Origin: an uncultured Gemmatimonadales bacterium
GTDB taxonomy: Bacteria; Gemmatimonadota; Gemmatimonadetes; Gemmatimonadales; GWC2-71-9
DNA: 64,000 nucleotides
Assembly: GCA_963844445.1 (NCBI GenBank)
Contig: CAWJOB010000001.1
Span: 731,746 to 795,745 of the forward strand
Reading direction: 5' to 3'
The notes beneath the pieces are model-generated. The model made no database searches, had not been told where the DNA came from, and saw only the letters and a list, made by a program, of their open reading frames with translations. Below, piece after piece: positions 6,131-62,213 of this stretch (position 1 is its first letter; each line of letters begins with the position of its first letter). The position numbers were made by a program, and so were the translations under genes.

Positions 6131-6133
6131 GGC

Positions 6134-13455: not shown

Positions 13456-13584
13456 GTTGGGCCAAACCCCATGGCTGTCAAACCTACGCGCATCGCTCGT
13501 GCTCGCCAGCCTGCGCGCGGCGTTTGCACGGGGTTGGAGCCCGTCGTATGTTGACGTGAAACCCGGTCCGGAACACGGTACGAT

Positions 13585-13687
13585 GTCATCCCGACCCCGA
13601 GAGCACGAGGGGGAGGGATCTTCTCACCCGGCATTCGATACCCGCGGAGTGGATCCCTCCCCCTCGTGCTCTCGGGGCCGGGATGAC
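13585..13687. repeat. 36-bp-arm inverted repeat (REP-like hairpin) in the hydA 5' region
   Basis: Left arm 13585-13620 is gtcatcccgaccccgagagcacgagggggagggatc. Right arm 13652-13687 is gatccctccccctcgtgctctcggggccgggatgac. One position is a G-U wobble pair rather than a Watson-Crick pair. The loop is 31 nt. The hairpin ends 5 nt before the AGGAGA RBS of hydA. Confidence 0.9.
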
Positions 13688-13705
13688 ACACCAGGAGAAG
13701 CGGCC

Positions 13706-16688: not shown

Positions 16689-16700
16689 GAGAAGGACGAG

Positions 16701-38562: not shown

Positions 38563-38644
38563 CCTCATCCCGAGCGCAGCGAGGGACCTGCCTTGCCGGC
38601 TTCGATAGCAGCCAGGTAGGTCCCTCGCTCCGCTCGGGATGAGG
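38563..38644. repeat. 27-31-bp-arm inverted repeat (REP-like hairpin, catcccgag...ctcgggatg type)
   Basis: Left arm cctcatcccgagcgcagcgagggacct (38563-38589). Right arm aggtccctcgctccgctcgggatgagg (38618-38644). One mismatch. The ends resemble those of the 13585 hairpin (tcatcccga / cgggatga). Confidence 0.9.
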
Positions 38645-38653
38645 TATCCTCGC

Positions 38654-38815
38654 GTCTGCCGTCTGCCGTCTGCCGTCTGCCGTCTGCCGTCTGCCGTCTG
38701 CCGTCTGCCGTCTGCCGTCTGCCGTCTGCCGTCTGCCGTCTGCCGTCTGCCCGTCTGCCGTCTGCCGTCTGCCGTCTGCCGTCTGCCGTCCGCCGTCCGC
38801 CGTCCGCCGTCCGCC
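38654..38815. repeat. heptanucleotide microsatellite: (GTCTGCC)14 + C + (GTCTGCC)5 + (GTCCGCC)4
   Basis: Counted directly. Unit starts run from 38654 to 38745 every 7 nt. There is an extra C at 38752. Five more units follow from 38753, then four GTCCGCC units at 38788-38815. The array ends 57 nt upstream of the otsAB ATG. Confidence 0.95.
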
Positions 38816-38871
38816 GTTCCGCCTCCCGCGTCCGCCGTTCCCCCCTCCCCCCTTTCGGCTACCTTTCCCCC

Positions 38872-41076
38872 ATGTCCCGTCTTCTGATCGTGGCCAACCG
38901 GCTGCCCGTCACGGTTCGTCCCACCGAGGCTGGCGTCGAGGTGGAGCGGAGCTCGGGTGGACTCGCCACCGGGTTGTCTCGGCCCCACGAGCAATCGGGG
39001 GGGCTCTGGATCGGGTGGTCCGGAGCGGAAGAGGAGCTGACGCCCGAGCAGCAAACCGCGTTCGACAGGCAGCTTGAGGAGCACCGGCTGGTCGCCGTCC
39101 CCCTCACCCGGGACCAGGTGACACGGTACTACGAGGGGTACTCCAACGGGGTGCTCTGGCCCCTCTTCCACTACCTGCTCGACCAGGTTCCGCTCCAGGC
39201 CAGCGACTGGGACGCCTACGTCGAGGTCAACGAGCTCTTCGCCGACGCCGTCGCGAAACAGTACCGCGCGGGCGACCTGATCTGGGTGCACGACTACCAG
39301 CTGCTTCTCCTGCCCGGCCTGCTTCGCCGCCGGCTCCCCGACTCCCGGATCGGCTTCTTCCTCCACATCCCGTTTCCCTCCGAGGAGCTGTTCCGGACTC
39401 TGCCGCCCCGGAGGCAGCTTCTCGAAGGGATGCTGGGCGCCGACCTCGTCGGCTTCCACACCCCCACCTATCTCCGCCACTTCGCCACCGCACTGACCGA
39501 CATCCTGGGCCTCACCGTGGACATCGATCGGGTACAGCTGCCCGGCCGCGAGGTCCGGCTCGGGGTCTTCCCTATGGGGATCGATGCCGCCTCGTTCCAG
39601 ACCCTGGCGAAGGACCCCGCGGTCGAGGCCGAGGCGGAGGCGCTCCGGGGCGACGGGAGCGTCCGCATCCTCGTCGGGGTCGACCGGCTCGACTACACCA
39701 AGGGAATTCCCCGGCGGCTGCTGGCCTACGAGCGGATGCTGGAGACCCATCCCGAGCTCCGCGAGAGGGTCCGGCTGGTGCAGGTCGCGGTCCCATCCCG
39801 CACCGGGGTCGGGGCATACCAGGACTTCCGCTCCCTGGTGGATGGGCTGGTGGGCCGGATCAACGGTGTGTTCGGCACGCCGCGCTGGGTGCCGGTGCAC
39901 TACATCTTCCGCGGCCTGTCCGCGCCCGACCTGGTGGCGCTCTACCGCGCCGCCGACGTGATGCTGGTGACTCCGCTCCGGGACGGGATGAACCTGGTGG
40001 CGAAAGAGTTCATCGCCTCCCGGCCGGATGGCGACGGCGTGCTGGTGCTGAGCGAGTTCGCCGGTGCGTCGTGGGAGCTTCCGGAGGCGCTGCCGGTCAA
40101 CCCCTACGACACCGAGGCCACGGCGGAGGTCTTCTTCCGGGCTCTTTCCATGGACCCCGACGAGCGGCGGGCGCGCCTCGCGCCGCTCCGCCAGCGGGTC
40201 GCCACCTTCGACGTCCACAGCTGGGTCACCTCGTTCCTCGATCAACTCGAGCGAGTGACCGGACCCGCCGTCCGGACCACGCCCACCGCGGGCGAGCCCG
40301 AGCTTCGGGAGGAGTTGAACCGCGCCCTGGAGCGGAACGACGAGCTGCTGCTCCTCCTCGACTACGATGGCACGCTGGTGCCGTTCACCGCGACGCCGGA
40401 GCTGGCGCGGCCCGACGCCGCCCTGGTGCGGCTCCTCCGCTCGCTGGCGAGCCGCCCGGAGACCGAGGTGCACATCGTCAGCGGCCGGAGCCGCGAGGCG
40501 CTGGAGCAGTGGGTCGGCAACCTTCCCATCTGGCTGCACGCGGAGCACGGCTTCTGGTCCCGGCCGCCCGGCCAGGCCGAGTGGACCCCGGCGGCGGACA
40601 TACACGGCACCTGGCGGGAGCCGGTGCTGGCGATCCTGCGCGACATCACCGCGCGTACCCCGGGCTCGCTCATCGAGGTGAAGGCGGTGGCCATCGCGTG
40701 GCACTACCGGCTGGCCGACCTGGAGACCGGCGCCCGACGGGCCAACGAGCTCCGGATCCATCTCAACCAGCTGCTCAGCAACCAGCCGGTCGAGATTCTC
40801 GCCGGCAATCGGGTCCTCGAGATCCGTCCCTACGGCGTCCACAAGGGCCGGATCATCCCCCCGATGTCCGCCGAGCGGGAGGCGCGGACGACCGTGGTGG
40901 CAATCGGAGACGACCGCACCGACGAGGATCTCTTCGCCTCGCTGCCGCCGGAGGCGATCAGCGCCCGGGTGGGCCCGGGCGCGACCCGGGCGCGCTTCCG
41001 GCTGGACGGGACCTCGGCGGTGCGCGGCGTGCTCCAGATGCTGGCGGACGCGGGCGTACGGGTCGATCTGGCATAG
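38872..41076 (+). CDS. otsA: bifunctional trehalose-6-phosphate synthase / trehalose-6-phosphate phosphatase (OtsA-OtsB fusion)
   Basis: ORF 38872..41076 (734 aa). GT20 N-terminus: [38 protein letters not shown]-terminal HAD phosphatase: [24 protein letters not shown]. Intact. Confidence 0.9.
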
Positions 41077-44220: not shown

Positions 44221-44303
44221 GTGCGAGCGGACTGTAGGGGCCGGGGAGGCTAGGGGTTGGCTGGGCTTGGCCAGCCTCCCCGGCCCCTTCAGTCCGCTCG
44301 CAC
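44221..44303. repeat. 31-bp-arm inverted repeat (hairpin) upstream of the sensor kinase
   Basis: Left arm gtgcgagcggactgtaggggccggggaggct (44221-44251). Right arm agcctccccggccccttcagtccgctcgcac (44273-44303). One mismatch and a 21-nt loop. Confidence 0.9.
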
Positions 44304-44338
44304 GGCGCGCTGACAGTCTCGCCCTCACGAGGGCTTCG

Positions 44339-45946
44339 ATGAACCGTGCTTCCCGTTCCCTCGTTCTCCTCCTGTCCCTGACGGTCGCCCTCGCGGGCCT
44401 CCTGGCCTACGAGGCGCAGAGCGCCACCCGCTCTCACCGCGTCACCGCGGAGCGAGCGCTCCGGGACTACGCGACCGTGGCGGCCCGGGAGCTCGCCACC
44501 GCGAGCGCCGAGGCGCTGGAGGGAATCGTCGGCCCGGCGCTCAATCCTGTCGTCGGAAGTCCCGCCGCGTCGCCCTACGACCCGCTGCCGCCGGCCTCCG
44601 CGATCGCGGCCGCGGCTGACGGGATCCTCGGCTGTGGTGGCGCCGACCCCGGACGCACCTACTTCGCGCTCGACTTCCGGAGCGGCGCCCTCTCCACCGC
44701 CGGCGTCGTTCCCGACGCGGAGACCACCGCCTGGCTCCGGGCCTCCGTCGGCACCGCGGCGCGGGCGCGCCGCGATCGCGTGGGGCCGCGGCCCTATCGC
44801 CGGGCGGATCGCCGTGTACGGCGTCAAGAGCCTCCGCTACAGCGGCTTCGCCGGCCACGACGCGCCGCTGGCGGCCTACGGTCTGGTGACCTGCCGCTCG
44901 GCGCTCGGTCCGGTGATCGCCCGGGTGCTGAAGGAGCATCCGCTGCTGCCCCGCTCGGTGTCCGGCGGGCTCTCCAACGCCGAGCTGGCGGCGCTGGAGG
45001 TGAGCGCGCCCGACGGCGAGCCGCTGTTTCGCTTCGGCCCCGCGGCCGAGGCCGCCTACGCCGGCGACACCGTCACCGCCGGCCCCGGTTCGCCGGTCTT
45101 CCGCGCGTCGCTCCCCGCGTCGGTCGCCGGGCGCCTGGTGGTGGCGCGCCCGCGGTCGCGGCTGCCGCTCCTGCTTCGGGCTGCTCGCGGTCACCGCCGG
45201 GCTCGCGGCGGTCGCCCTGCGGCAGCTCCGCCGGGAGCAGGAGCTCGCTCGACTTCGGGACGACTTCACCTCCAGCGTCTCCCACGAGCTGCGCACGCCG
45301 CTCACCCAGATCCTCCTCTTCGCGGAGACGCTGGAGCTGGGCAGGGCGGGCGGGGAAGGCGAGCGGCGCCAGGCGCTGAGGATCATCGTCCAGGAGGCGC
45401 GGCGGCTGGCGCACCTGGTGGAGAACGTGCTGCAGTTCTCCCGCGCCGAGCCGGGGGATGGTGCGGCTGCGGACCGAGGAGCAGCGGCTCGCCCCGCTGC
45501 TCCGCGAGACGGCGGAGCGCTTCGCGCCGCTCGCCTCCGGGTGCGGCCGGCTCGGCGTCGAGCTCGACGAGGCGCTGGTGGCTCCGGTCCACGCCGACTC
45601 GCTGCGCCAGATCGTCATCAACCTGCTGGACAACGCGGTGAAATACGGCCGCGAAGACGGTGTCGTCTCGCTCCGGACATCCCTCGCCGCGGGTCGCGCG
45701 CGACTCGAGGTGGACGACGCGGGGCCCGGTATCGCCCCGGAAGACCGGACGAGAGTGTGGGAGCCGTTCGTCCGCCTCGAGCGGGCGCCGGCAGTGGCGG
45801 GGAGCGGTATCGGGCTGGCGGTGGTGCGCGAGCTGGTGGCGGCGCACGGGGGAGCGTGCTGGGTGGAGGAGGCGCCGGGCGGCGGGGCGCGATTCGTGGT
45901 CGAGCTGCCGCAGGGCCGGCACGCCGCATCGATCGAGGCGGCGTGA
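44339..45946 (+). pseudogene. sensor histidine kinase, three +1 frame breaks
   Basis: TM1 MNRASRSLVLLLSLTVALAGLLAY (frame of 44267). Periplasmic part IAVYGVKSLRYSGFAGHDAPLAAYGLV (frame of 44634). TM2 and H-box by own translation: FGLLAVTAGLAAVALRQLRREQELARLRDDFTSSVSHELRTPLTQI. HATPase_c in 45458..45946: NLLDNAVKYG..DDAGPGI..GSGIGLAVV. Junctions near 44780, 45185 and 45462 (the last in a G5 run). Confidence 0.8.
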
Positions 45947-46647
45947 TGGCACGGGTGCTCATCATCGAGGACAACCGGAACCTGGCGCTCGGCCTGCGCA
46001 CCAACCTCGAGTTCGAGGGCCACGACGCGGAGATCGCCGGCGACGGCACCGCAGGCCTGATCCGGGCTCGCACCCGGGGCCACGATCTCATCGTGCTGGA
46101 CCTGATGCTTCCGGGGCTCGATGGCTTCCGGGTGCTCGAGGTCCTGCGGGGCGAGGGACTGACCACGCCGGTGTTGGTGCTCACCGCCCGCGGCGACGAG
46201 ACCGACAAGGTGCGCGGGCTGCGTGGCGGCGCCGACGATTACGTCACCAAGCCCTTCGCCCTGCGCGAGCTGCTCGCCCGGGTGGCCGCGCTGCTCCGCC
46301 GGACCCGCGCTCCGGGCGAGGAGCGATCCGCGCCGCCCGCCGTCTATCGCTTCGGCGAGATCGCGGTGAATCCGGGCACCCGGGTCGTGACGCGAGCGGG
46401 CCATCCCGTGCCGCTCAGACCCAAGGAGTACGATCTGCTCGGCGCCCTGCTGCGGCGCGAAGGCGGTGTGGTCGGCCGTGCGGATCTGCTGCGCGAGGTC
46501 TGGGGCTATCACGAGAGCGTGCTCAGCCGGACCCTCGACACCCACATCGGCGAGCTGCGCCGCAAGCTCGAAGCCGACCCCGCCATGCCGCGGCACATCC
46601 TCACCGTTCGGAAGACCGGCTATCGCCTGGCGATTGACCCCCAGTGA
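45946..46647 (+). CDS. OmpR-family response regulator
   Basis: ATG 45946 overlaps the kinase stop. MARVLIIEDN..LIVLDLMLPGLDG..LTARGDE..GADDYVTKPF. Winged-helix C-terminus: LTVRKTGYRL. Confidence 0.9.
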   Translation: MARVLIIEDNRNLALGLRTNLEFEGHDAEIAGDGTAGLIRARTRGHDLIVLDLMLPGLDGFRVLEVLRGEGLTTPVLVLTARGDETDKVRGLRGGADDYVTKPFALRELLARVAALLRRTRAPGEERSAPPAVYRFGEIAVNPGTRVVTRAGHPVPLRPKEYDLLGALLRREGGVVGRADLLREVWGYHESVLSRTLDTHIGELRRKLEADPAMPRHILTVRKTGYRLAIDPQ

Positions 46648-50325: not shown

Positions 50326-52677
50326 ATGCTGCGCCACCTGGCGTTCGCCCTGCCCGTTCTGATCGATCCCCGATTGGTCTACCACGGTCGGTCGGGGAAC
50401 CTGGACGTGAGGCCGCCCAGGCTCGAAGCGGAGATCGAGGTGGACGGCAAGCTCACCGAGGACGCCTGGGCCAGCGCGGCGGTGCTCACCGGATTCTCCC
50501 AGTTCTCGCCGGTGGACGGGGTGCCGGCCGCCGATTCGACCGAGGTCCTGGTCTGGTACTCCCCCTCCGCCATCCACTTCGGCATCCGGGCCTACGAAGC
50601 GCACGGCGCGGTCCACGCCACCCTGGCCGACCGCGACCGGATCGGCGCCGACGATCACGTGCAGATCCTGCTCAGCACCTTCAACGACGGGCGCCAGGCG
50701 ACCGTCCTCGCGGTGAACCCGCTCGGCGTCCAGTCGGACGGGGCGCTGGTGGAGACCGGATCGACTTCAGGAAACGGATTCAGCAGCGCGGTGGTCCGGC
50801 GGGAGGTCGCGGACCTGAGCCCCGACTACATCTACCACTCGAAGGGCCGGGTCACCGAATACGGCTACGAGGTCGAGGTCCGGATCCCGTTCAAGAGCCT
50901 GCGCTATCAGTCGCAAGCCGGAGCAGAGCTGGGGGATCAACCTCACCCGCCAGGTCCAGCACTCCGGGTACGAGGACTCCTGGGTGCCGGCGCGCCGGGC
51001 GAGCGCCTCGTTCCTGGCCCAGTCAGGGCGGCTGGTCGGGCTCACCGATCTGCGGCGTGGCCTGGTGGTCGATCTCAATCCCTCCGTCACGTCGAGGACC
51101 ACGGGACGGCGGAACGGGTCGGGATGGGACTACAGCGGCGGGCGCCCCGAGGTCGGCGGCACCGCGCGGTGGGGAATCAGCAACAACCTGAGTCTCACCG
51201 GCACGGCCAATCCCGATTTCAGTCAGGTGGAGTCGGATGCCGGCCAGCTGCTCTTCGATCCGAGGGATGAGCGGTTCCTCCAGGAGAAGCGCCCCTTCTT
51301 CCTGGATGGCATCGAGCAGTTCAACGTGCCCAGCGGCCTGGTGTACAGCCGGCGGGTGGTGCAGCCGGTGGCGGCCGTCAAGCTGACAGGGAAGGGACTG
51401 GGGGCCGACGTCGCCCTCCTGTCCGCGGTAGACGACCGCTCGCTCTCCGTGGGCCGCGACCACCCGATCTACAACATCCTCCGGCTCCAAAGGGACATCG
51501 GGGCCAACTCGCGGGTCGGGATGGTCTACACCGACCGTATCGAGGGCGGCGATTACAACCGGGTCCTCGGCGCCGACGCACGGCTGGTCTTCGGCGAGAT
51601 CTACACAGTCCAGCTCCAGGCGGCCGGCAGCCGCACCCGGGTCGGCGACCAGACCACCACCGCCCCGCTCTGGGAGGCGCGGTTCCACCGGAACGGCCGC
51701 ACGTTCGGATTCCGCACCAGCATCCGCGCCAGCGACGAGGAGTTCCGTGCTCGCAGCGGCTTCTTCCCTCGCCCGGGCCTGGTCCACGTGCAGTTCCAGC
51801 CCCGGGCCACGATCTACGGCAAGACCGGATCGGTGATGGAGAGCCTCACGTTCGACGTGAATCTGAACGGGCGGTGGCGCTACGACGAGTTCGTGGGCGA
51901 GGGCGGGATTCTCGACGAGCAGCTCCACTTCAACGTCAACACCACGCTGCGAGGCGGCTGGAACCTCACGGGGTCGTTGCTGCTCGAGACTTTCGGATAC
52001 CCGTTCGAAATCTACGGCGGATACCGGGTGGAGCTGCCTCGATTCGGCGGCGACCCCGACACGGTCGCGTTCGTCGGCCGGCCCCGGATTCCCAACCGCG
52101 ACTACGTCCTGTCGTTCGAGACGCCCGAGTTCAAGCACTTCTCGGGAAACGCGTTCATCCTGTGGGGGAACGACGAGAACTTCTTCGAGTGGTCGCCCGG
52201 GCGGATCATCATCTCGAACGCCGGGGTGACCTGGCGGCCGACCGGCAAGCTGCGTCTCGACGGCACCTACGCTCTCCAGCAGGTCCGGCGGGTGAGCGAC
52301 GGCAGCCTGGTCAACGTGGCCCACCTTCCGCGGCTCAAGATGGAGTATCAGGTGTCCCGGCCGATCTTCCTCCGCCTGGTCGGCGAGTATGGCCACGAGA
52401 AGCAGGACTCGCTCCGGGACGACACCCGCACGGAGGCCCCGATCCTGGTGTTCGATGCGGAGGCCGGCGACTTCGTCCGGACCCGCGCGTTCACCCGCAG
52501 CTCCTTCCGCGGTGACATCCTCTTCTCCTACCAGCCCAATCCCGGAACGGTGGTTTTTCTCGGTTACGGCAGCACGCTGTTGAACCCCTTGGATCCGGCG
52601 CATTCCTCGCGCGGGCGGGCTTGCGGCGGGTGGAGGACGGGTTCTTCCTCAAGATGAGCTACCTGTTTCACATGTAG
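50326..52677 (+). pseudogene. DUF5916 / CBM9-like outer-membrane-type protein, two frame breaks
   Basis: 50326..51270: IEVDGKLTEDAWASAAVLTGFSQFSPVDG..RIPFKSLRYQS. 50984..52657 frame: WGINLTRQVQHSGYEDSWVP..NPDFSQVESD..GYGSTLL. Own translation of the last frame gives RRVEDGFFLKMSYLFHM*, with TAG at 52675-52677. Junctions near 50920 and 52610. Confidence 0.7.
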
Positions 52678-52928
52678 CCGTTGGTCCCCTCTTCGATCGC
52701 TTGTAGCCGGGCCGCAACAACGACCCTCAGTCAGGGCCGGATGCGCAAGCGTCTGCACCTCCTTCGCATCACGTTCAACCACAGCCGCGACGCGGGCTTG
52801 TCGTAGGATTGCATACCCTCCGCGCGGATGCCTCGACTCGCCTTCCATTGGCTTGCCTCTTGCCCCTGTCGTCCTAGCCAGCCCCGACAACAACCGATCA
52901 CCTTCTCGAACGGATGCCCGCGAGCTCG

Positions 52929-54146
52929 ATGCGCGTTCTCATCCTGAACTACGAGTATCCTCCGCTCGGCGGCGGCGCCGGAGTTGCCACCCAGGCGCTG
53001 GCCTCCGGGCTGGCGTCACGCGGGGTGACGGTGGACGTGATCACCGCCGGCGAGCGGGACGAGCACCGGTCCGAGGTCCTCTGGGACGGCCGCGCAACCG
53101 AAGAGGGACTGCTCACCGTGTACCGGGTGAAGAGCCGCCGCACCGGGGTACACCAGGCCGGCATCCGCGGGGCGTTCAGCTACCTCCGCGGCGCGCTCCC
53201 GCTGGTGCGCGCGCGGCTGCGCGCCGAGCACTACGACATCGTGCATCTGTTCTTCTCCCTGCCCACCGGCGCGCTGCTCCCCTTCCTGCCCCTCCGGGAC
53301 ACGCCCGTCATCGTGTCGCTTCGCGGGTCCGACGTGCCGGGCTACGATCCTTGCCAGCTCACCCTGCGCCGCGCGCACAAGGCGCTGCGCCCTCTCACCC
53401 GCTGGATCTGGCGGCGAGCCAGCCGGGTGGTGGCGGTCTGCGAGAGCCTCGGACGGCTGGCGCTCCGCACCGATCCCGGTCTCCGGTACTCGGTCATCCC
53501 CAACGGCGTGGACCTGGCCCGTTTCCGTCCCTCCTCCCGCCGCCGCCCCCGCAACCCGAAAAAGGTGCGGTGCCTCGCGGTCGCGCGGCTGGTGGAGCGC
53601 AAGGGAATCGGCGACCTGATCCAGGCGATCGCCTCGCTCGAGCGCGGCCGCTACGAGCTGGAGATCGTGGGATCGGGCCCCGACGAGCAGCGGCTCAAGG
53701 ATCTGGCGGAGCTCCTGGGTGTGAGCCGCGAGGTGATCTTCGCCGGCTCGGTGGATCGCGCGGTGATTCCGGGGCGCTACCGTGACGCGGACATCTTTAC
53801 GCTCGCGCCTTGGGACGACGCGTTCGGCCATGTCTTCGCGGAGGCGCTCGCGTCGGGGCTGCCGATCGTGGGCAGCACCGTCGGCGGGATCCCCGAAGTC
53901 GTGGAGCACGGCAAGAACGGTTTCCTGGTCCCGCCGCGGGAGCCGAAGGCCCTCGCCGCCGCTATCCGTCATCTGGCCGACCACCCCGCGGTTCGCGCCG
54001 ACATCGGGCGGTGGAACCGAATCCAGGCGGAGGCAAACCTCTCCTGGGCTCGGGTCACCACCAGGTACCTGTCGCTCTACACCGGTGTGCTCCGCCGCGC
54101 GCCCGCGCGCCCGCGGCTCGCCGAGCTGCCCTCGAGCACCTGGTGA
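52929..54146 (+). CDS. GT4-family glycosyltransferase
   Basis: In ORF 52914..54146: MRVLILNYEYPPLGGGAGVATQALASGL..FGHVFAEALASGLPIVGSTVGGIPEVV (E-x7-E region). Confidence 0.85.
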   Translation: MRVLILNYEYPPLGGGAGVATQALASGLASRGVTVDVITAGERDEHRSEVLWDGRATEEGLLTVYRVKSRRTGVHQAGIRGAFSYLRGALPLVRARLRAEHYDIVHLFFSLPTGALLPFLPLRDTPVIVSLRGSDVPGYDPCQLTLRRAHKALRPLTRWIWRRASRVVAVCESLGRLALRTDPGLRYSVIPNGVDLARFRPSSRRRPRNPKKVRCLAVARLVERKGIGDLIQAIASLERGRYELEIVGSGPDEQRLKDLAELLGVSREVIFAGSVDRAVIPGRYRDADIFTLAPWDDAFGHVFAEALASGLPIVGSTVGGIPEVVEHGKNGFLVPPREPKALAAAIRHLADHPAVRADIGRWNRIQAEANLSWARVTTRYLSLYTGVLRRAPARPRLAELPSSTW

Positions 54147-55516
54147 GCGGCGGCCGTCCGGAGATCGGGCCCGCGCTTTCGGCCGCCTGGAGGCACACCC
54201 GGGTGGCCAGGGCGGAGCTTCGCCTCTGGCAGGACGCCCGGCTCCGGCGCCTGGTGCTGCATGCGTACGAGTCGGTGCCGTTGTACCGCCGGCTCTTCGA
54301 TCTCCACCGCCTGCATCCACGCCACATCCGTGGCATCGTCGACCTCGACCTGATCCCGTTCACCGACAAAGCGGAGATGCGCCGGCAGGGGCCCGCGGCG
54401 CTGCTCGCGCGGGGCCACGATCCGGAGGCGCTGCTCTCGGTGCGCACCAGCGGCGTGTCGGGCGAGCCCTTCACCATCCGCCGCACCTGGCTGGAGGACA
54501 AGCTCCAGGATCTCCTTCGGCTCCGTGCGTTCCACGCCTTTGGTGTCGGACCCCGCGATCGCATCGTGGTGGTGGGCGCCGCCGGCCAGCCAACGGCGGC
54601 AGACCAGAAGCTGATCGACCGCTCGCTCCGGGCGTTCGGATTTCACCAGAGGCAGCTGATCGACGGGCTCCAGGAGCCGGCCCAGGTGGCGGCCCAGCTC
54701 CGGGAGGCACGGCCGGAGGTGCTGGTCGGGCTGCCCGGCATGCTCGATCGCCTGGCGGCGCCCGGGCTGGCCGACCTCGTGCGGTCGGTGCGGCCACGGG
54801 TGGTCATCGTCGGCGGCGAGGTCGCCACGCCGGCGATGCGGCTCCGCATCCGCGAGACCTTCGCCGCGCCGCTCTACGAGACCTACGCCAGCCACGAGTG
54901 TCCCCTCATAGCCTGGGAGTGCCACCATTCGGGTGACCTGCACACCTGTGACGACGGCGTGCTGGTCGAGGTGTTGCGCGACGGCCGTGGAGCGGAGCCG
55001 GGCGAACGGGGCGAGGTGGTGGTGACCAATCTCCACGCCTACGCGATGCCGTTCATCCGCTATCGCATCGGCGACCTCGCCTCGCGAGGCGCACCGTGCG
55101 GCTGCGGCGCCGCCTTCTCCACGATTGGGGAAATCACGGGGCGGACGACCGATCACTTCCCGCTCGCCGACGGCCGTCTGCTGGACCCCCGCGAGATCGT
55201 CGGTCGCCTGGCGTGGGGGCCCCGCGAATGGATCAAGCAATGCCTGCTGGTGCAGGAGCGCCGCGACCGGGTGGTGCTCTACGTGGCGGCCGACGAGCCG
55301 CCGCCCGCGGAGCGGGTTCAGGAGATCGAGCGCGTCGCGCGCCCCATTCTCGGACCCGGCGTGGAGTTCGAGGTGCTGTCGGCCGGGCGCATCCCCATCG
55401 AGCCCAGCGGGAAGCTCCGTCTGTCCCTCTCCCTGGTTCACTCCGAGCGCGATCAGGTCGGGATCGAGCCGGTTCAGCCCGCGGACCAAGTCCGCCGGCG
55501 GATGCTCGGCGCCTGA
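54143..55516 (+). CDS. phenylacetate-CoA-ligase / CapK / F390-synthetase-like adenylate-forming enzyme
   Basis: GTG 54143 overlaps the GT4 stop (GTGA), in the frame of ORF 53810..55516: VRTSGVSGEPFTI (P-loop-like), YETYASHEC, GEVVVTNL, FIRYRIGDL, GRTTD, SGKLRLS. Confidence 0.75.
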   Translation: MSGGRPEIGPALSAAWRHTRVARAELRLWQDARLRRLVLHAYESVPLYRRLFDLHRLHPRHIRGIVDLDLIPFTDKAEMRRQGPAALLARGHDPEALLSVRTSGVSGEPFTIRRTWLEDKLQDLLRLRAFHAFGVGPRDRIVVVGAAGQPTAADQKLIDRSLRAFGFHQRQLIDGLQEPAQVAAQLREARPEVLVGLPGMLDRLAAPGLADLVRSVRPRVVIVGGEVATPAMRLRIRETFAAPLYETYASHECPLIAWECHHSGDLHTCDDGVLVEVLRDGRGAEPGERGEVVVTNLHAYAMPFIRYRIGDLASRGAPCGCGAAFSTIGEITGRTTDHFPLADGRLLDPREIVGRLAWGPREWIKQCLLVQERRDRVVLYVAADEPPPAERVQEIERVARPILGPGVEFEVLSAGRIPIEPSGKLRLSLSLVHSERDQVGIEPVQPADQVRRRMLGA

Positions 55517-55545
55517 GTCGCTTCTACCTCCACTGCGTTGGCTCC

Positions 55546-56823
55546 GTGGGCTCGCTGCATCGACTGGGCGAAGCGATCCCGGGCCTCGACCGGTATCCGG
55601 AGCGCGCGCTGCTCCTCGCCGGCGAGGGCGATGCCGTATGCGTCCCCACGCCGGTGGACCCCGCCTACCTCGGCTTCCTCGCCGGACTGGGGCTGGGTCC
55701 GCGGCCGGAGCACGTCATCGTCGCCGGCGGGAACGGTCGGGGCACGGGGCGCTCTCTCGCCGAGCGGCTGCTCTGCGAGCCGGCGGTCCTGAGCCGGGCG
55801 GCCCGCGCGCTGGGCGCCGACGAGGTGACCATCGACCCCTACGCGGCCACGACCGAGGTGATGGCCCTGGCGGAGGTCATGGAGCGCGAGAGCGGTATCC
55901 CGGTGAGGATGGACGGCTCGCCCAGGATCACGAAGTACGCCGACCAGAAGCATCACATGCGGGTCAAGGCGCAGGAGCTGGGCATCCCGGTCGCCGAGGG
56001 TGAAGTGGCGGAGCTGTCCTATCCCGGCGGCCGCCGCCGCCGCGACATGGAGCCGGTGCGGGCCGCGATCGAACGGCAGCTCCGGAAGTCCGCCAGGGTG
56101 ATCGTCCGGGGCGCCACCGGTGCGTCGGGCTCCTCCACCTTCGTGGTCGGCCGCGGCGGCGAGGACACTGACGGAGTGCTGCGGCGGCTCGCGATGCGGT
56201 GCGACAACCGGGTCTACCTGGTCGAAGGGATGGTCGAGGCGGTGGTGTCGCCCAGCGTGCAGATCCACATTCCCCCGGCAGGCGCGCCGCTGGTTTGCAC
56301 CGGGATCACCGATCAGCGATGGGCGCGCGGCCTCACCTACGAGGGCAACCAGCTTCCATCGTCCGCGCGCACCGTGGACGCGATGGAGGCGTGGGCTCGG
56401 ATCCTGGCCAACTGGATGCGGAGCCAGGGTTATACCGGGCTGGCCGGGTTCGACTTTGTCGAGTACCGCGATCCGGTGACGAGCGGCCTCCGCGCCATCC
56501 TGGCGGAGGTAAATCCCCGGGTGAACGGGTCCACCTATCCACTCGCCGTGCGCGCCCGACTCAACGCGGCGGCCGGCCGGGCGGGCCGGCCCCAGGCGCG
56601 GGCATTCGTCTCGGGGACGGTGGGGACCCGCGCGGCGAGCTTCGTCCGGGTCAAGGCCGCCATCGGGCATCTCCTGTTCGATCCGGACCGCGGCACGGGG
56701 GTGGTACCCTACGCCACCGGCTGCCTGGAGCACGGACAATGCTCGCTCGTGGCGCTGGCGGGCTCGCGGCTGCGCGCCGCGGAGTTGTACGGGGCGGCCC
56801 GGGCCCGGCTGGAGGCGGCGTGA
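55546..56823 (+). CDS. ATP-grasp domain protein (PGM1-like peptide ligase?); start uncertain (GTG 55546, or CTG 55513 overlapping the upstream stop)
   Basis: Frame of ORF 55096..56823: VIVRGATGASGSSTFVV, VYLVEGMVEAVVSPSVQI, GLAGFDFVEY..ILAEVNPRVNGSTYP (the E-x-N-x-R metal/ATP site pattern). Confidence 0.65.
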   Translation: MGSLHRLGEAIPGLDRYPERALLLAGEGDAVCVPTPVDPAYLGFLAGLGLGPRPEHVIVAGGNGRGTGRSLAERLLCEPAVLSRAARALGADEVTIDPYAATTEVMALAEVMERESGIPVRMDGSPRITKYADQKHHMRVKAQELGIPVAEGEVAELSYPGGRRRRDMEPVRAAIERQLRKSARVIVRGATGASGSSTFVVGRGGEDTDGVLRRLAMRCDNRVYLVEGMVEAVVSPSVQIHIPPAGAPLVCTGITDQRWARGLTYEGNQLPSSARTVDAMEAWARILANWMRSQGYTGLAGFDFVEYRDPVTSGLRAILAEVNPRVNGSTYPLAVRARLNAAAGRAGRPQARAFVSGTVGTRAASFVRVKAAIGHLLFDPDRGTGVVPYATGCLEHGQCSLVALAGSRLRAAELYGAARARLEAA

Positions 56824-58067
56824 AAGACCTCCTTCTGGAGGTCTCCTACCGCCGTGCAGAACGGCACCGGCGCGGGCTCGACCACGTGGTCTTCGTCGGA
56901 GTCACCGGAAGCGCGGGCAAGACCACCACCAAGGACCTGGTCGCGGCCGTCCTCGCGCGCCGCTACAACGGCAGCAAGAGCCCGGGGACGCACAACGCGG
57001 CCCACTGGGTGAGCCGCACCGTGCTCGGCGTCCGGCGGGACGATGGGTTCTGCGTGCTCGAGCTGGGCGCGAGCGGCCCCGGCAGCCTCGACGATCCGAT
57101 CGCCCTGGTGCGTCCCAGCATCGCGGTGATCACCAACGTCGGCGGCGATCACCGGACCGCGTTCCGCACCCTCGACGCCACCGCGGCCGAGAAGATCAAG
57201 CTGGTGGCCGCGGTGCCCCTCGAAGGCCTGGCGGTGCTCAACGCCGACGATCCGCGGGTGACGTCCATGGCGGGCAGCTGCCGGGGCCGCGTCCTCACCT
57301 ATGGCCTCACCCCCTATGCATCGGTTCATGCCGAGTCGGTCACCAGCTCCTGGCCCGACCGACTCAGCTTCGTTGCCATTCATGGCGAGCAGCGTGTGGA
57401 GGTGCACACCCGATTCTGTGGCGTGCATTGGACCCATGCCTGTCTCGCCGCCATTACCGTCGGCGTCGGGTTCGGCATCCCGCTCGCCGACGCTGCGGCC
57501 GCGCTCGCGGACGTGGAGCCCGGACCGGGCCGGCTGAGCCCGGTCGAGGCGGGCGGCATCACCTTTCTGCGGGACGAGGTCAAGGCTTCCCTCTGGTCCA
57601 TCGGCCCCTCGCTGGAGTTCCTCCGAAGCGCGCGCGCGGCGCGGAAGGTGGTCGTGATCGGGACCATCTCCGACTACGGCGGCCGCGCGTCCTCGGTGTA
57701 CGCCTCGGTGGCGCGCCAGGCCCTCGAGGTGGCCGACGAGGTGATTTTCGTGGGCCCCCAGGCCCTCCGTTGCTCGGCGGCGCGGGCCCATCCCAGGGGC
57801 GCCGCGCTGCACGCGTTCCTCACCGCACGGAAGGCCCACAAACACCTCTCCGACACCCTGGTGGCCGGCGACCTGGTGCTGCTCAAGGGATCTCAGCGCG
57901 CCGACCACCTGCTGCGGCTGCTGCTGGCGCGTACGCGAAGGATCGCGTGTTGGCGGACGACCTGCCGGCGGATGACGTTCTGCGACGACTGCCTGCTGCT
58001 CCGAGTGCCTGAGCTTCCGTGGTCCGGCTACCGCGCACCGGTGGCGGGGGAGCCGGCCGATGCGTAG
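56820..58067 (+). CDS. Mur-ligase-family protein (central and C-terminal domains only) with a Cys4 C-terminal tail
   Basis: GTG 56820 overlaps the upstream stop (GTGA), in the frame of ORF 56199..58067: VFVGVTGSAGKTTTKD, ELGASGPG, VITNVGGDH, NADDP. Tail: CWRTTCRRMTFCDDC. Confidence 0.75.
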   Translation: MKDLLLEVSYRRAERHRRGLDHVVFVGVTGSAGKTTTKDLVAAVLARRYNGSKSPGTHNAAHWVSRTVLGVRRDDGFCVLELGASGPGSLDDPIALVRPSIAVITNVGGDHRTAFRTLDATAAEKIKLVAAVPLEGLAVLNADDPRVTSMAGSCRGRVLTYGLTPYASVHAESVTSSWPDRLSFVAIHGEQRVEVHTRFCGVHWTHACLAAITVGVGFGIPLADAAAALADVEPGPGRLSPVEAGGITFLRDEVKASLWSIGPSLEFLRSARAARKVVVIGTISDYGGRASSVYASVARQALEVADEVIFVGPQALRCSAARAHPRGAALHAFLTARKAHKHLSDTLVAGDLVLLKGSQRADHLLRLLLARTRRIACWRTTCRRMTFCDDCLLLRVPELPWSGYRAPVAGEPADA

Positions 58068-58332
58068 CGCGGTTGACAGGCTCGGCAACGGGGCCATAAG
58101 TTAGGCGACTACCCTCAGCCCGAGCCCCGCGATGCCTGAGACCGGCATGGAATCCGTGCGCATGAAACGCTGTTGCCGCGCCGGGCCACATCGCGGCCGG
58201 CGGGCAGCGCTGCTGTCCTAGGGCGTCGGGGTACCAGGTCCCGGCCGGCCGCTCTCCCTCCCGGGGCGCGGCCGGTCTTCGTTTCGGGCGGCTACAGCTC
58301 GAAGACAATGAATGCAGTGCAAGGAGGCAGAC

Positions 58333-59227
58333 ATGGCAACCGCCCAAGTGGCAGCCGCTACACCGATCGAGAAGCGGGGATACGCCCATCCTGAGGTCCT
58401 GGTCTCCACCGACTGGGTGGCGCAGCACCTCAAGGACCCGAAGGTCCGCCTGGTCGAGTCGAACGAGGACATCCTGCTCTACGACACCGGCCACATCCCC
58501 GGCGCGGTCAAGGTGGACTGGACGACCGATCTCAACGACTCGCTGGCGCGCGACTACATCGACCGCGAGCGACTCCAGAAGCTGCTCCGCGCCAAGGGGA
58601 TCAACGACGATACCACGATCGTCTTCTACGGCGACAAGAACAACTGGTGGGCGACGTACGCGCTCTGGGTGCTCGCAGCTCTTCGGGCTCGAAGAACGTC
58701 GAAGGTGATGGACGGCGGCCGGCTGCGCTGGGTGGACGAGGGACGCCCGCTCTCCACCGAGCGCCCTCGCTATCCCGAGGGCAACATCACCGTCGGCGAG
58801 CGGGACGACAAGAAGATCCGCGCCTTCCGCGACGAGGTGCTGGAGCACCAGAAGCAGAAGGGGCAGCTGGTGGACGTCCGGAGCCCGGAGGAGTTCCGGG
58901 GCGAGAAGACCCACATGCCGGAGTATCCGCAGGAGGGCTGCCTCCGGGGCGGGCACATCCCGGGTGCCAAGAGCATTCCGTGGGCCAAGGCGATCGATCC
59001 GGAGACCCACACGTTCAAGTCCGCCGAGGATCTCCGGAAGCTGTACGAGCAGGACAACAGCCTGAAGAAGGACCAGGAGACGATCGCCTACTGCCGGATC
59101 GGCGAGCGCTCGTCGCACACCTGGTTCGCGCTCACCTACCTGCTCGGGTTCGACAAGGTGCGGAACTACGACGGGTCGTGGACCGAGTGGGGGAATGCGG
59201 TGCAGGCTGCCGGTGGAGAAGCCGTAG
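58333..59227 (+). pseudogene. sseA: thiosulfate / 3-mercaptopyruvate sulfurtransferase (tandem rhodanese), frame disturbed near the 3' end
   Basis: ORF 58312..59319; ATG 58333 follows [29 protein letters not shown], active-site loop [20 protein letters not shown]. Own translation of the +1 frame after GNAV gives RLPVEKP*, with TAG at 59225-59227. The annotated ORF instead runs on to 59319. Confidence 0.8.
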
Positions 59228-59504
59228 CGGCCTTCCAGCCCGGCCCGCCTCCGTGGCCGGCTCTCCCGAGGGGGGGCCGGCCACAGTTGTTTGTGGGAAG
59301 GGCGCTACAGCCCGCCTGACGGCCGCGCCAACTACCCGACGTATCGATCTGTAGCCCTATGAGTTGCACTTCGGAGTCGCTGGCGCCGCCGTCGGTACGG
59401 TTCCTGCCCTTACGGCATCCCTCATCCTGCGAAACATCGAGCAAGCGGCGTCCGAACTGCCCACCCCGGGTAGGCGCGGCCCGCTGTGCGTCAAGGAGGC
59501 GGGT

Positions 59505-62213
59505 ATGCGCGTGCGTGGCTGGTGGACGACTGTCGTGCTCGCAGGTGTCGCGGTAGCCTGCGGCGATCAACCGACCGAGGTGGTGCCCGAGCGGCAGCAG
59601 ATGACGCAGGGGCCGGGACTCATCGCCCTCGCGACGTCATCGTCGGACGATGGGCTCTCGATTACCACCGACAAGGACGATTACTCGCCGGGCGACACCG
59701 TGTGGTTCACCGGGGCCGGATGGCCAGCGAACGACACGCTGGACATCCTGCTCGAAGATGAGCCAGCGACGCACGAGCCGCATACGTGGTGGGTGCCGGT
59801 GGGGGAGGATGGCGGGTTTCGCGATTCGACATATGTGGTGGACATCAACGACATCGGTGTGAACTTCACCTTGACAGCGACCAGTCGAGCGACGGATCGC
59901 TGGCTGACGGTGCAGTTCACGGATGGCAACGTCAGGGTCACTGCCGCCCCTGACGGGGTCGTCTTCGTGGTAACCCGCACAGTGTTCAGCGCGGCGGGGT
60001 GCAGCGGGTCGATCAGCTTGGGCCCCAATACTTTCACGATCACCGCCGGTACAAACACCACTGTCGCCTCTGCCGGCGGCTCCGGACCGCCGTCAGTACG
60101 GCTTGTAGCCGCCGCGACCTCGGCGGCAGGAGCTTCGTTCGGGAGCTGGGCCGGGGACAAGCCGTTCACCGTCGATCCATCGGACACCAAGAGCATCTGC
60201 CTCAATGGGGACAATGGCAATCTGAGCTTCACGGCCACGTACAACGCGACTCCCGATCTCACCGTCTCGAAGGCGACCACTGGCGGCTTCGAGGTAGGCA
60301 GCACGAATGCTCAATACACCTTCGAGGTGTCGAACCCGGGTACCGCCACCGCCCAGGGTAGCGCCGCGAATCGCATCACGGTTACCGACGTCCTTCCAGC
60401 GGGCATCACCCCGCCCAGCTCGCCCTTTACTGTGAGCAACTGGAACTGCACGGTCACTGGGCAAACAGTCACGTGCCAGCTCGCGGCCGGTCAAACGATC
60501 ATTCCCGGTGCTTCGAGGACCTTCAGCTTCGGCGTCGGCATCACGCTCGCGGCCTGCCCGAGCGTCTCGAACTCGGCCAGCGTAGGCGGCGGCAACGAGC
60601 CAGCGGGCAATACCGGGAACAACACGAGTGCGGCCGTTGCGACCCCGATCTCCGCAGGCTGCCCCAACCCGAACCAGGCGCCGAGCGCCGACGCGGGTGA
60701 TGACAAGGAGGGCAACGAAGGCTCCGCGATCCAGCTGGACGGCAGCGGCTCGACCGACCCCGATGGCGATACGCCGCTCGAGTTCGAATGGACCGTCGTC
60801 ACGCCCCTGACGGGATTTGATGTCGGCGCGTCCTGCGGCCTGGACGACGCTTCGATCGAGAAGCCATCCATCACCTGCACCGACGACGGCATCGTGAAGG
60901 TGACGCTGAAGGTGAAGGACAGCGAGGGCTTGCCGTCGGCGAACGAGGATGAGGTCGAGGTCACCGTGAAGAACGTGAAACCTGCGGTGACGGTTTCGCC
61001 GGCGTCGAAGACCATCGCCGAGGGCGGAAGCGCCAGCTTCACGGCGACGGTGACGGACGTAGGCGCCAACGACGATCCCGATGATTTCGACTTTGACTGG
61101 ACCACGACCGTCAGCCCCTGCTCGCTGAGCGGTACGCCGACGCTCACGAGCGCGACCTTCTCCTGCAATGACAACGCGAGCGGCACGGTGAAGCTCACCG
61201 TGGACGATGGTGACGCGGATGGCGAAGCATTCGACGAAGCCAGCCTGACGGTCACCAATGTACCGCCGACGGCGAGTGGACTGACCACGAACAGCCCGGT
61301 GGCCGAGGGCAGCGACATCACCCTCTCACTCGCGGACGTCTTCGATCCGTCCACCGTCGACGCGGCGAGCCTGCGGTACGCCTTCGACTGCGGCGATGGG
61401 AACGGGTATGGCACGGCGACGAGCTATGCTACTGCGGGGGAAGAGAACGATGCGGATTGCCCCACGACCGACGACGGCACCCGCACCGTGAAGGGAAAAG
61501 TGTTCGACAAGGATGGCGGGTCCAACGAGTATACGGAATCGGTGACGATCACCAACGTGCCACCGTCGATCCAGAGTCTCACGACGCCAGTCGGGGGCCC
61601 GCTTCCGGCTTCGATCGCCATCGGAGCGACCCTCGACATCAAAGTCACCTTCACTGATCCGGGAAGTGGCGATACGCACACGGCCAAGATCGATTGCGGC
61701 ACCGGGTATAGCGATGTCGACAGCGGCAATGATGTCGCCTCGCCGTTCCAGACTTCCTGTACGTTTGCTACCGTCGGATCAAAGACGATCAAAGTGAAGG
61801 TTACGGATGACGACGGCGGCTACGACGTGGAGTCGCATGTGATCAGCGTCCTGTACAATTTCGAAGGACTCTTTGCCCCGGTCGACCGGCCGAATACGAT
61901 GAATGTTTCCAAGGCAGGCCAGTCGATTCCACTCAAGTGGAGGCTGACCGACTTTCAGGGCGCGCCGATTCTCGACTTCTCCCCTGCGGCTTTAGGAGTC
62001 GCGGTCAGCGGGTTGCAGTGCACGGTCTCGACCTCGCTCGACCAGATCGAGGAGTATGCCGGTAATTCGGGTCTCCAAAACCTCGGCGACGGCTACTACC
62101 AGTTCAACTGGAAGACCCCTCCCGCCTACGCGAACAGCTGCAAGGCGGTCGGGCTCAACCTCGGAGAGGCATCGCCTCGTGGGCCGCTGGCATACTTCAA
62201 CTTCAAGAAGTAA
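59505..62213 (+). CDS. large surface lipoprotein: DUF11-type repeat, four PKD-like modules, C-terminal PxKF-like domain
   Basis: In ORF 59364..62213, from ATG 59505 (RBS AAGGAGG). Lipobox VVLAGVAVACG. DUF11-like: LTVSKATTGG..YTFEVSNPGTA..VTDVLPAGI. Modules start V(T/K)NV(P/K)P. PKD-like: DAGDDKEGNEGSAIQLDGSGSTDPDGD. C-terminus: NVSKAGQSIPLKW..YYQFNWKTP..CKAVGLNL..AYFNFKK. Confidence 0.8.
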   Translation: MRVRGWWTTVVLAGVAVACGDQPTEVVPERQQMTQGPGLIALATSSSDDGLSITTDKDDYSPGDTVWFTGAGWPANDTLDILLEDEPATHEPHTWWVPVGEDGGFRDSTYVVDINDIGVNFTLTATSRATDRWLTVQFTDGNVRVTAAPDGVVFVVTRTVFSAAGCSGSISLGPNTFTITAGTNTTVASAGGSGPPSVRLVAAATSAAGASFGSWAGDKPFTVDPSDTKSICLNGDNGNLSFTATYNATPDLTVSKATTGGFEVGSTNAQYTFEVSNPGTATAQGSAANRITVTDVLPAGITPPSSPFTVSNWNCTVTGQTVTCQLAAGQTIIPGASRTFSFGVGITLAACPSVSNSASVGGGNEPAGNTGNNTSAAVATPISAGCPNPNQAPSADAGDDKEGNEGSAIQLDGSGSTDPDGDTPLEFEWTVVTPLTGFDVGASCGLDDASIEKPSITCTDDGIVKVTLKVKDSEGLPSANEDEVEVTVKNVKPAVTVSPASKTIAEGGSASFTATVTDVGANDDPDDFDFDWTTTVSPCSLSGTPTLTSATFSCNDNASGTVKLTVDDGDADGEAFDEASLTVTNVPPTASGLTTNSPVAEGSDITLSLADVFDPSTVDAASLRYAFDCGDGNGYGTATSYATAGEENDADCPTTDDGTRTVKGKVFDKDGGSNEYTESVTITNVPPSIQSLTTPVGGPLPASIAIGATLDIKVTFTDPGSGDTHTAKIDCGTGYSDVDSGNDVASPFQTSCTFATVGSKTIKVKVTDDDGGYDVESHVISVLYNFEGLFAPVDRPNTMNVSKAGQSIPLKWRLTDFQGAPILDFSPAALGVAVSGLQCTVSTSLDQIEEYAGNSGLQNLGDGYYQFNWKTPPAYANSCKAVGLNLGEASPRGPLAYFNFKK

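Follow-up and report, generated by a model that had tools for sequence, protein, structure and literature searches.

What product could be made by a chain of genes that joins one glycosyltransferase to three different ATP-dependent ligases? The question is raised by four consecutive genes at positions 52914-58067 of a 64,000-nucleotide stretch of DNA (hereafter the window) from an uncultured Gemmatimonadales bacterium (contig CAWJOB010000001.1). The original prediction, drawn from the letters and open reading frames (ORFs), named the encoded proteins as a family 4 glycosyltransferase (GT4), a PaaK/CapK-like adenylating enzyme, an ATP-grasp enzyme and a Mur-ligase-like protein lacking the N-terminal UDP-binding domain, and proposed that they build a sugar-linked peptide or polyamide. 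Pfam and NCBIfam searches bear out all four domain assignments, and alignments to the murF model and to Escherichia coli MurF agree that the N-terminal domain is missing. Comparison with related genomes adds that the window carries a full locus of ~11 genes minus two cassettes, which together account for seven genes. Judged from its sequence, the locus most likely builds a short amino-acid or peptide chain on a sugar without a ribosome or a non-ribosomal peptide synthetase, and the general idea of the original prediction, a sugar-linked short peptide made by stand-alone ligases, stands as probable. Our preferred and more specific reading, to which we give slightly less than an even chance, is that this modular locus survives here in a reduced but functional form, its four genes decorating an envelope glycoconjugate with amino acids or a peptide.

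With a guanine-plus-cytosine (GC) content of ~70%, long spurious ORFs are common in the window. A frame plot of third-position GC nevertheless reveals one coding frame on the plus strand, with switches at ~54140, ~55510 and ~56820 that coincide with the meeting points of the four proposed genes. All four ORFs are full length, have strong third-position GC and retain intact catalytic motifs; all four genes are real and coding. The GTGA start/stop overlaps predicted at 54143-54146 and 56820-56823 are both present in the sequence. At the PaaK/ATP-grasp junction, however, the start proposed at 55513 is a CTG codon, giving neither a canonical start nor a canonical overlap. The first ATG, GTG or TTG in the ATP-grasp frame is GTG 55546, 29 nt past the PaaK stop, which is also the start adopted for the public database protein P0001. 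In relatives the ATP-grasp protein begins with ATG or GTG followed by RRRFYLHC, and the window keeps RFYLHC only with the CTG 55513 start; the conserved start position is CTG in the window and in two related loci (L006 and L013) and ATG or GTG in the other relatives. As read from these sequences, either CTG initiates translation of the ATP-grasp gene or the proteins of the window, L006 and L013 would lack the conserved RFYLHC N-terminus. Gene calls in relatives link the cluster genes by 4-nt overlaps. Promoter and terminator scans of 52500-58500 produced no match, nor did Rfam and tRNA scans.

The first gene (52914-54146, plus strand; 410 aa, or 405 aa from an alternative ATG at 52929) encodes a GT4 glycosyltransferase of the GT-B, retaining type. 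Both halves of the GT-B fold are present, the Glyco_transf_4 N-domain (84 bits, 1e-23) and the Glycos_transf_1 C-domain (123 bits, 9e-36), each above the Pfam cut-off. The nearest solved structures are sucrose-phosphate synthase Tll1590, BshA, MshA (full length) and PimA/B, a set of neighbours that is generic for retaining GT4 enzymes. Scores against the NCBIfam models for BshA (104.7 vs a cut-off of 273.7) and MshA (98.5 vs 462.5) fall far short, and the stp2 model is matched at 8e-34, below its cut-off.

The second gene (54143-55516, plus strand; 457 aa), whose GTG start overlaps the GT4 stop, encodes a PaaK/CapK-like adenylating enzyme of the ANL class, designated PaaK#2. It matches the DVU_1553 family (4e-39), PaaK (6e-32) and F390 synthetase (3e-15) in NCBIfam, all far below the equivalog cut-offs (TIGR02155, 83.6 vs 646; NF041878, 110.8 vs 700). 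The best match in the PDB is PaaK 2y4o (7e-22, residues 21-426), and AjiA1 was also matched. The translation contains the A3-, A8- and A10-like motifs TSGVSGEP, GRTTD and PSGK. A CapK_C domain was not matched in the window protein at E<=0.01, and the L001 orthologue matches it weakly. The scores do not reach equivalog level for phenylacetate-CoA ligase proper, and no paa genes lie nearby.

The third gene (55546-56823, plus strand) encodes a predicted amide ligase of the PGM1/BesA type within the ATP-grasp family, 425 aa long from GTG 55546; initiation at the non-canonical CTG 55513 would make it overlap the PaaK stop. The PreAtp-grasp domain (PF18604) scores 41.2 bits vs a cut-off of 27.5, the ATP-grasp_3 match is weak, and PGM1_C (PF18105), which is annotated on several homologues, also scores weakly here (19.3 bits vs 22.5). 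An AlphaFold2 (AF2) model with a predicted local distance difference test (pLDDT) score of 85 was compared by Foldseek. Its closest matches are the Streptomyces peptide ligase 8ynd/8ynq (template-modelling (TM) score 0.73-0.76), BesA (0.72) and PGM1 (0.70), with LdmS (7r8q) next; the entries 8ynd, 8yi6 and 3wvq span TM 0.70-0.76. CphA is not among the top 50 matches.

The fourth gene (56820-58067, plus strand; 415 aa), starting at a GTG that overlaps the ATP-grasp stop, encodes a MurF-like ligase without the N-terminal UDP-MurNAc-binding domain. Pfam recognises Mur_ligase_M (105 bits, 6e-30) and Mur_ligase_C (38 bits, 4e-9), and the P-loop GSAGKTTT, DH and NADD motifs are present. The protein reaches 199.2 bits against the TIGR01143 murF model, vs a cut-off of 288.6, over model positions 73-407 of 418, and aligns to E. 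coli MurF residues 102-403; a single N-terminal helix stands ahead of the P-loop where MurF has its domain 1. Its AlphaFold model has a pLDDT of 85 over residues 1-370. The original prediction had likened the ATP-grasp and Mur-like pair to cyanophycin synthetase, but Foldseek ranks MurF 4qf5 first (TM score normalised to the query, 0.81; root-mean-square deviation 2.4 Å), with MurC and MurE next, and places CphA1 (7lgj, TM 0.66) at rank 33; the top 50 contain no MurT, FolC or PgsB. Sequence matches follow the same order: murF 1e-58, CphA 2e-15 (55.9 vs a cut-off of 877) and MurT 7e-5. Although JGI annotates the homologues as MurF, identity as the housekeeping MurF or MurE was rejected, given the missing N-domain, the score below the murF cut-off and dispensability in relatives: 21 of 32 complete loci do without the gene, and in the close relative L008 it is precisely absent, from which we conclude, with the original prediction, that it does not serve housekeeping peptidoglycan synthesis.

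The MurF-like protein also carries a C-terminal tail in which four cysteines are spaced C377-x4-C382-x5-C388-x2-C391 (ACWRTTCRRMTFCDDC; 57948-57992, plus strand). No part of canonical MurF aligns to this tail, and its AF2 pLDDT is below 50. The four cysteines, which adjoin a WR pair, are invariant in a 14-homologue alignment, and the motif is found in 111 of 113 full-length homologues as well as in a Nitrospirota orthologue. The tail is probably metal-binding. In paralogues of this family (P0230, P0232 and ~20 others, including L076:10001-11938), which are 50-58% identical and keep the Cys4 motif, a peptidyl-tRNA hydrolase domain (Pth; PF01195) with canonical GLGNPG and TPHN motifs is fused to the C-terminus, and an AsnB-like amidotransferase is encoded directly upstream. 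Fusion of a Mur ligase to Pth hints at a connection with aminoacyl- or peptidyl-tRNA chemistry.

Related loci were collected by scanning an ATP-grasp alignment against GTDB species genomes, with ATP-grasp as the anchor gene. This gave 73 loci, mostly in metagenome-assembled genomes of Gemmatimonadales, the others being from Nitrospirota, Brocadiaceae, Verrucomicrobiales, one deltaproteobacterium and one spirochaete; the scan found no close homologue in any cultured organism. In Gemmatimonadales its position is fixed: every cluster has a DUF5916 gene upstream and a rhodanese gene downstream. Gene content was counted by tblastn mapping over 32 complete Gemmatimonadales loci. ATP-grasp is present in all 32 and GT4 in 31, so that these two form the near-invariant core of the locus, and six loci contain them alone. 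The remaining genes vary: PaaK#2 occurs in 24 loci, GNAT in 20, PaaK#1 in 19, FemAB-like in 18, BKACE in 15, MurF-like and formyltransferase in 11 each, and a second ATP-grasp, of the carbamoyl-phosphate-synthase type (CPSase-type), in 4. Full loci also encode Polysacc_synt/Polysacc_synt_3 proteins (Wzx-like, of the MOP family) and Formyl_trans_N proteins before the rhodanese gene, as identified by Pfam in L004 and L032. The four genes had been put forward as a conserved block. Content is instead modular, and the exact four-gene layout is found in 3 of the 32 loci (the window, L015 and L066). Lack of co-conservation, which had been named as grounds for abandoning the idea, is found in part: PaaK and the MurF-like ligase can each be dispensed with, and the window derives by deletion from a ~11-gene locus. 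The GT4 and ATP-grasp core is kept in 31 of 32. The Cys4 tail, the fixed position between DUF5916 and rhodanese, and the flippase, FemAB-like, GNAT and formyltransferase partners in relatives are features that the original prediction did not hold.

Alignment with L007, which has a fuller complement, locates both deletions. At junction 1 (54143-54150, plus strand) the window lacks 2.2 kb containing PaaK#1 and BKACE, a loss that falls precisely between the stop of GT4 and the start of PaaK#2: by blastn, window 54050-54150 corresponds to L007 6281-6381 and window 54144-54249 to L007 8581-8686, with a 7-nt overlap between the alignments. At junction 2 (58067/58068, plus strand) 5.1 kb are missing, comprising two FemAB-like genes, GNAT, a Wzx-like MOP flippase and formyltransferase; window 57900-58070 corresponds to L007 12400-12570 and window 58068-58395 to L007 17662-17999, so the missing stretch starts at the MurF-like stop and ends ~275 nt before the rhodanese gene. 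The identities of the missing genes come from Pfam annotation of L004, L032, L001 and L002. Single genes have been lost in close relatives as well. Besides the missing MurF-like gene of L008, in L013 an in-frame deletion has reduced the PaaK-like gene to a 5-codon remnant, GTG AGG CCG GGC GCC TGA, between the GT4 stop and the ATP-grasp start (L013:6950-6975). The full architecture occurs in deep-branching members (ATP-grasp identity 47-50%), which makes deletion more parsimonious than insertion.

Are the four remaining genes relics of a decaying locus? That they are leftovers making no current product is very improbable, even though seven of ~11 genes are gone through two deletions, further single genes have been lost in close relatives and the ATP-grasp gene no longer has a canonical start at the conserved position (CTG 55513). 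The ORFs, third-position GC and catalytic motifs are intact, as described above. Between the window and L066, which share the same layout at 90.7% nucleotide identity, the ratio of nonsynonymous to synonymous divergence (dN/dS) is 0.16-0.22 for the four genes, comparable to 0.15-0.19 for the housekeeping flanks; against other relatives the values are 0.15-0.25 and 0.13-0.16. The layout persists in L015 at ~78% nucleotide identity, and the smaller loci with GT4 and ATP-grasp alone are maintained in at least six genomes. The four remaining genes are under purifying selection and are not decaying. Synonymous divergence between the window and L066 falls to 0.05 in the MurF-like gene and 0.11 in the rhodanese gene (56820-59231), compared with 0.21-0.34 in the upstream genes, a mosaic suggestive of a recent recombination event spanning the right-hand end of the locus.

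Ligase sets of this kind also occur outside the Gemmatimonadales position. Two independent Nitrospirota loci (L043 and L059) contain three to five PaaK-like genes together with FemAB-like, AsnB-like amidotransferase and ATP-grasp genes, and in L043 also a Cys4 MurF-like gene, all inside a single-strand gene array. Both arrays include GT2 and methyltransferase genes; L043 adds PMT_2 (GT-C) and an NAD-dependent epimerase, and L059 a GFO/IDH/MocA oxidoreductase. These surroundings are a surface-glycan context. At a different Gemmatimonadota locus (that of P0220), a 54%-identical MurF-like paralogue is found with a second Mur-like ligase lacking the N-domain, two PGA_cap (CapA-like) proteins, AsnB-like, BKACE, two GNATs, two FemAB-like proteins and Polysacc_synt_3. 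Here the full cluster's late module thus recurs in the absence of the GT4, PaaK and ATP-grasp genes.

From the enzyme classes a stepwise route can be proposed. GT4 would install or create the sugar unit. The PaaK/CapK-like enzyme would convert a carboxylate to an acyl-adenylate and then to an amide; that carboxylate would most likely belong to a uronic acid or to a first residue, as with VpsH, a PaaK/CapK-like enzyme of Vibrio polysaccharide (VPS) synthesis in Vibrio cholerae, which amide-links glycine to the N-acetylgulosaminuronic acid (GulNAcA) of a bactoprenyl-pyrophosphate-linked disaccharide (PMC13463779). The ATP-grasp enzyme and the MurF-like ligase may both work through acyl-phosphates, each activating a carboxylate in this form and attaching one more amino acid or dipeptide. 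Because the UDP-binding domain is missing, the substrate of the MurF-like ligase would not be a UDP-MurNAc peptide; it could be lipid-linked, as for MurT, or free. In the full loci, FemAB-like transferases, GNAT and formyltransferase would extend and cap the chain. The Wzx-like MOP flippase of these loci suggests delivery to the envelope, and an envelope glycoconjugate is therefore favoured. Without the late genes, the conjugate made by the lineage of the window may be shorter, and would either stay in the cell or be flipped by machinery whose genes lie elsewhere.

The cluster resembles peptidoglycan stem-peptide synthesis, VPS synthesis and Campylobacter capsule decoration, and is a member of none of them. 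Stem-peptide assembly by MurC-F, Ddl, FemXAB and MurJ is likewise a stepwise, ATP-dependent peptide extension on a sugar. As with Ddl and MurF, a gene for a MurF-fold ligase directly follows one for an ATP-grasp ligase, and full relatives add FemAB-like proteins and a MOP-family flippase. Unlike peptidoglycan assembly, the locus uses GT4 rather than MurG (GT28) and a PGM1-type ATP-grasp rather than Ddl, with no MraY or dcw context seen; unlike canonical MurF, the window protein has no UDP-MurNAc domain, carries the extra Cys4 tail, scores below the murF cut-off and is dispensable (present at 11 of 32 loci). Taken further, the full locus could be a second, peptidoglycan-independent "stem-peptide" line in the Gram-negative soil phyla Gemmatimonadota and Nitrospirota, in which a lipid-linked glycopeptide would be built by ANL, ATP-grasp, tRNA-dependent Fem-like and MurF-ΔN-Cys4 enzymes (the last being the truncated, Cys4-tailed MurF family) and flipped to the envelope, cassette loss and gain would tune peptide length, and the window would hold a truncated form. 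We consider this extended proposal doubtful.

VPS synthesis offers the best precedent for the role of the PaaK-like enzyme, with a PaaK/CapK-like ANL enzyme in a glycan context together with GT4 enzymes. VPS has a full Wzx/Wzy locus, a phosphoglycosyltransferase, several glycosyltransferases and a single glycine, whereas here one glycosyltransferase is combined with up to six ligases or transferases, with no phosphoglycosyltransferase or Wzy seen in the full relatives. In Campylobacter jejuni, Cj1438, a GT2 fused to a TupA-like ATP-grasp domain, uses that domain to amidate glucuronic acid (GlcA) of the capsule (PMC11800379). The coupling of a glycosyltransferase to an ATP-grasp amidoligase parallels the GT4 and ATP-grasp core; the core differs in having a PGM1/BesA-like ATP-grasp and a GT4, encoded by separate genes. 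PGM1 (pheganomycin), BesA and 8ynd share the PreATP-grasp plus ATP-grasp architecture and the fold (TM 0.70-0.76), but they are only 17-21% identical and belong to actinobacterial secondary-metabolite clusters, and no precursor-peptide or amidinotransferase gene is present here. CphA1 similarly combines ATP-grasp and Mur-ligase-like modules, but as one fused polymerase, whereas the genes here are separate, not obligately paired, and nearer to PGM1 and MurF. Exopolysaccharide (EPS) loci of the PEP-CTERM/XrtA type combine GT4 (stp2), FemAB-like and acyl-ligase genes according to TIGRFAM descriptions; the window GT4 matches stp2 only below threshold, and no exosortase, PEP-CTERM or chain-length genes were seen. 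The original prediction recognised no characterised system, and none has emerged: searches of NCBIfam equivalogs (all below cut-off), PADLOC, the PDB and the literature turned up no characterised locus of the same composition, and Aravind-lab papers on peptide ligases and lipocone domains contain no description of the cluster.

Several observations weigh against decoration of an envelope glycoconjugate. The nearest characterised relatives of the ATP-grasp enzyme (PGM1, BesA and LdmS) have free small molecules or peptides as substrates instead of sugars, and the enzyme does not belong to the TupA/Cj1438 type; the solved structures nearest to GT4 are of enzymes whose acceptors are small soluble compounds or lipids. 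Between their DUF5916 and rhodanese genes, neither the window nor the minimal GT4 plus ATP-grasp loci have a gene for a flippase, a priming phosphoglycosyltransferase or a polymerase, the cluster has no gene for uronic-acid synthesis, and the MOP-family Pfam scores in the full loci are modest (28-31 bits). In another Gemmatimonadota genome (L065), xanthine-dehydrogenase genes surround a PaaK-like/ATP-grasp pair that stands on its own; in a deltaproteobacterium the pair adjoins PGA_cap, and distant ATP-grasp homologues (30-34% identity; Thiothrix, Nitrospira sp. T9) are found in unrelated contexts beside aminotransferases and AMP-binding enzymes. The likeness to VpsH is one of enzyme class and context, not of sequence comparison. 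Finally, it is from intact enzymes of known classes, their linkage and translational chaining, modular co-variation and purifying selection that we infer the mechanism.

Many of these observations would also suit a soluble small molecule. In such a pathway the ligases would join free amino acids or other acids into a di- to oligopeptide, in the manner of dapdiamide, bacilysin, PGM1 or BesA; GT4 would glycosylate it or supply a glycoside aglycone, as for mycothiol, bacillithiol or a compatible solute, and the MOP protein would export the metabolite. The best structural matches of the ATP-grasp enzyme are secondary-metabolite and free-amino-acid ligases (8ynd, BesA, PGM1, LdmS), the best solved relatives of GT4 include BshA, MshA and sucrose-phosphate synthase, and the lone pair of L065, the neighbours of the distant homologues and the lack of flippase, phosphoglycosyltransferase and polymerase in the window and minimal loci fit equally. 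However, the BshA and MshA equivalog scores of GT4 are far below cut-off, and neither an LmbE-type deacetylase nor a Cys ligase is present. The FemAB-like and Polysacc_synt-type partners and the Nitrospirota glycan context point to the envelope, and a fixed position with varying gene content is reminiscent of surface-glycan loci. On balance we regard a soluble product as somewhat unlikely, the strongest of the alternatives to an envelope glycoconjugate. A thiol pathway of the mycothiol or bacillithiol kind, brought to mind by the BshA/MshA-like GT4 and the neighbouring rhodanese, was rejected: the rhodanese is a conserved flank only, and no mapped locus contains a deacetylase or an MshC/BshC-like gene. 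A precursor peptide of the ribosomally synthesised and post-translationally modified (RiPP) type, as for PGM1, was also rejected, since the candidate, a 109-aa ORF of L001, occurs in 1 of 32 loci; small ORFs were not searched in depth.

After the remnant explanation considered above comes, at a shade lower probability, modification of peptidoglycan precursors, in which the MurF-like, ATP-grasp and FemAB-like enzymes would add residues to the carboxylates or amines of the lipid II stem peptide in the way of MurT/GatD and FemXAB. The MurF fold and the FemAB-like genes of relatives are compatible with this, and MurT, which acts on lipid II, provides a parallel for loss of the UDP-binding domain. 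Modification of lipid II would, however, have no need of the most conserved partner, a dedicated GT4, and the minimal loci consist of GT4 and ATP-grasp only, with the MurF-like gene in only 11 of 32. The MurT match is weak (7e-5), with MurT outside the top 50 structural matches. The original prediction that no dcw or cell-wall genes are nearby agrees with the ~45 larger ORFs scanned over 64 kb, a scan that was not exhaustive, none of which is such a gene. Polymerisation of amino acids by a split ATP-grasp and Mur-like pair into a cyanophycin-like or poly-γ-glutamate-like polyamide is the least probable explanation by a clear measure, since the pairing that recalls the CphA G and M domains is not obligate (MurF-like in 11 of 32 loci), the weak CphA matches (2e-15; TM 0.66) are far outdone by MurF (1e-58; Foldseek rank 1 vs 33), the ATP-grasp is PGM1-type with CphA outside its top 50, and the window has neither a PGA_cap gene nor a match to PgsB/PgsC models. 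In its favour, PGA_cap (CapA-like) genes adjoin related ligases in two other loci. Identity as a cyanophycin synthetase was rejected on the ranks of both sequence and fold matches. A defence or conflict system, raised by a GT4-conflict Pfam match (41 bits), was rejected because PADLOC has no match for the four proteins and the flanks are housekeeping genes.

The flanking genes frame the locus without, it appears, contributing to it. The DUF5916 protein upstream (50984-52657, plus strand; identified by Pfam) is probably not part of the pathway, and in some loci DUF983, GNAT and Ser/Thr kinase genes intervene between it and GT4. The downstream flank is a tandem-rhodanese sulfurtransferase (58312-59319, plus strand; Pfam and tblastn), 76-95% identical in amino acids across loci. 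The 245-nt spacer ahead of it (58068-58311) is 79-87% identical across relatives, with or without preceding cluster genes, and contains a GC-rich hairpin (CCGGCCGC...GCGGCCGG) with a T-rich run after it, near 58245-58290; Rfam has no match for the spacer, and the terminator scan made no call there. Downstream of the rhodanese, 59364-62213 encodes a 949-aa protein with PKD/DUF11 repeats at a GC content of 0.63-0.67, lower than in the rest of the window. Upstream of the block are a response regulator, a pyridoxal-phosphate (PLP) decarboxylase, an M28 peptidase and DUF5916, and the window also encodes peptidases and transporters. The region 44267-46647 has a very high GC content (0.74): its ORF at 44267-45379 has no Pfam match, and the longest ORF of the response regulator (45418-46647) reaches its receiver domain only at residue 180; gene starts in this region are uncertain. 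Further upstream, 38620-41076 encodes a fused trehalose-6-phosphate synthase/phosphatase (OtsA-OtsB; Glyco_transf_20 plus Trehalose_PPase) of 818 aa, and 2577-17570 contains genes of the nucleobase-catabolism type (aldehyde dehydrogenase, DHO_dh-like, allantoicase, xanthine-dehydrogenase-family subunits, amidohydrolase, cytosine/purine permease and CN-hydrolase).

The most original elements of the locus are the MurF-ΔN-Cys4 family and the cassette-wise variation of genes at one fixed position. Attachment of amino acids or peptides to bacterial glycans outside peptidoglycan is poorly known; VpsH, the first PaaK-like enzyme to receive a genetic assignment, received it as recently as 2026. Members of the locus family surround a single GT4 with anything from one to six ligases or transferases, a natural series that could help to dissect this chemistry. 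It also brings out a MurF-derived family, without the UDP domain, with a Cys4 tail and sometimes fused to Pth, that pipelines currently annotate as housekeeping MurF. As Gemmatimonadales are abundant uncultured soil bacteria, the product may be a significant component of envelopes or matrix in soils.

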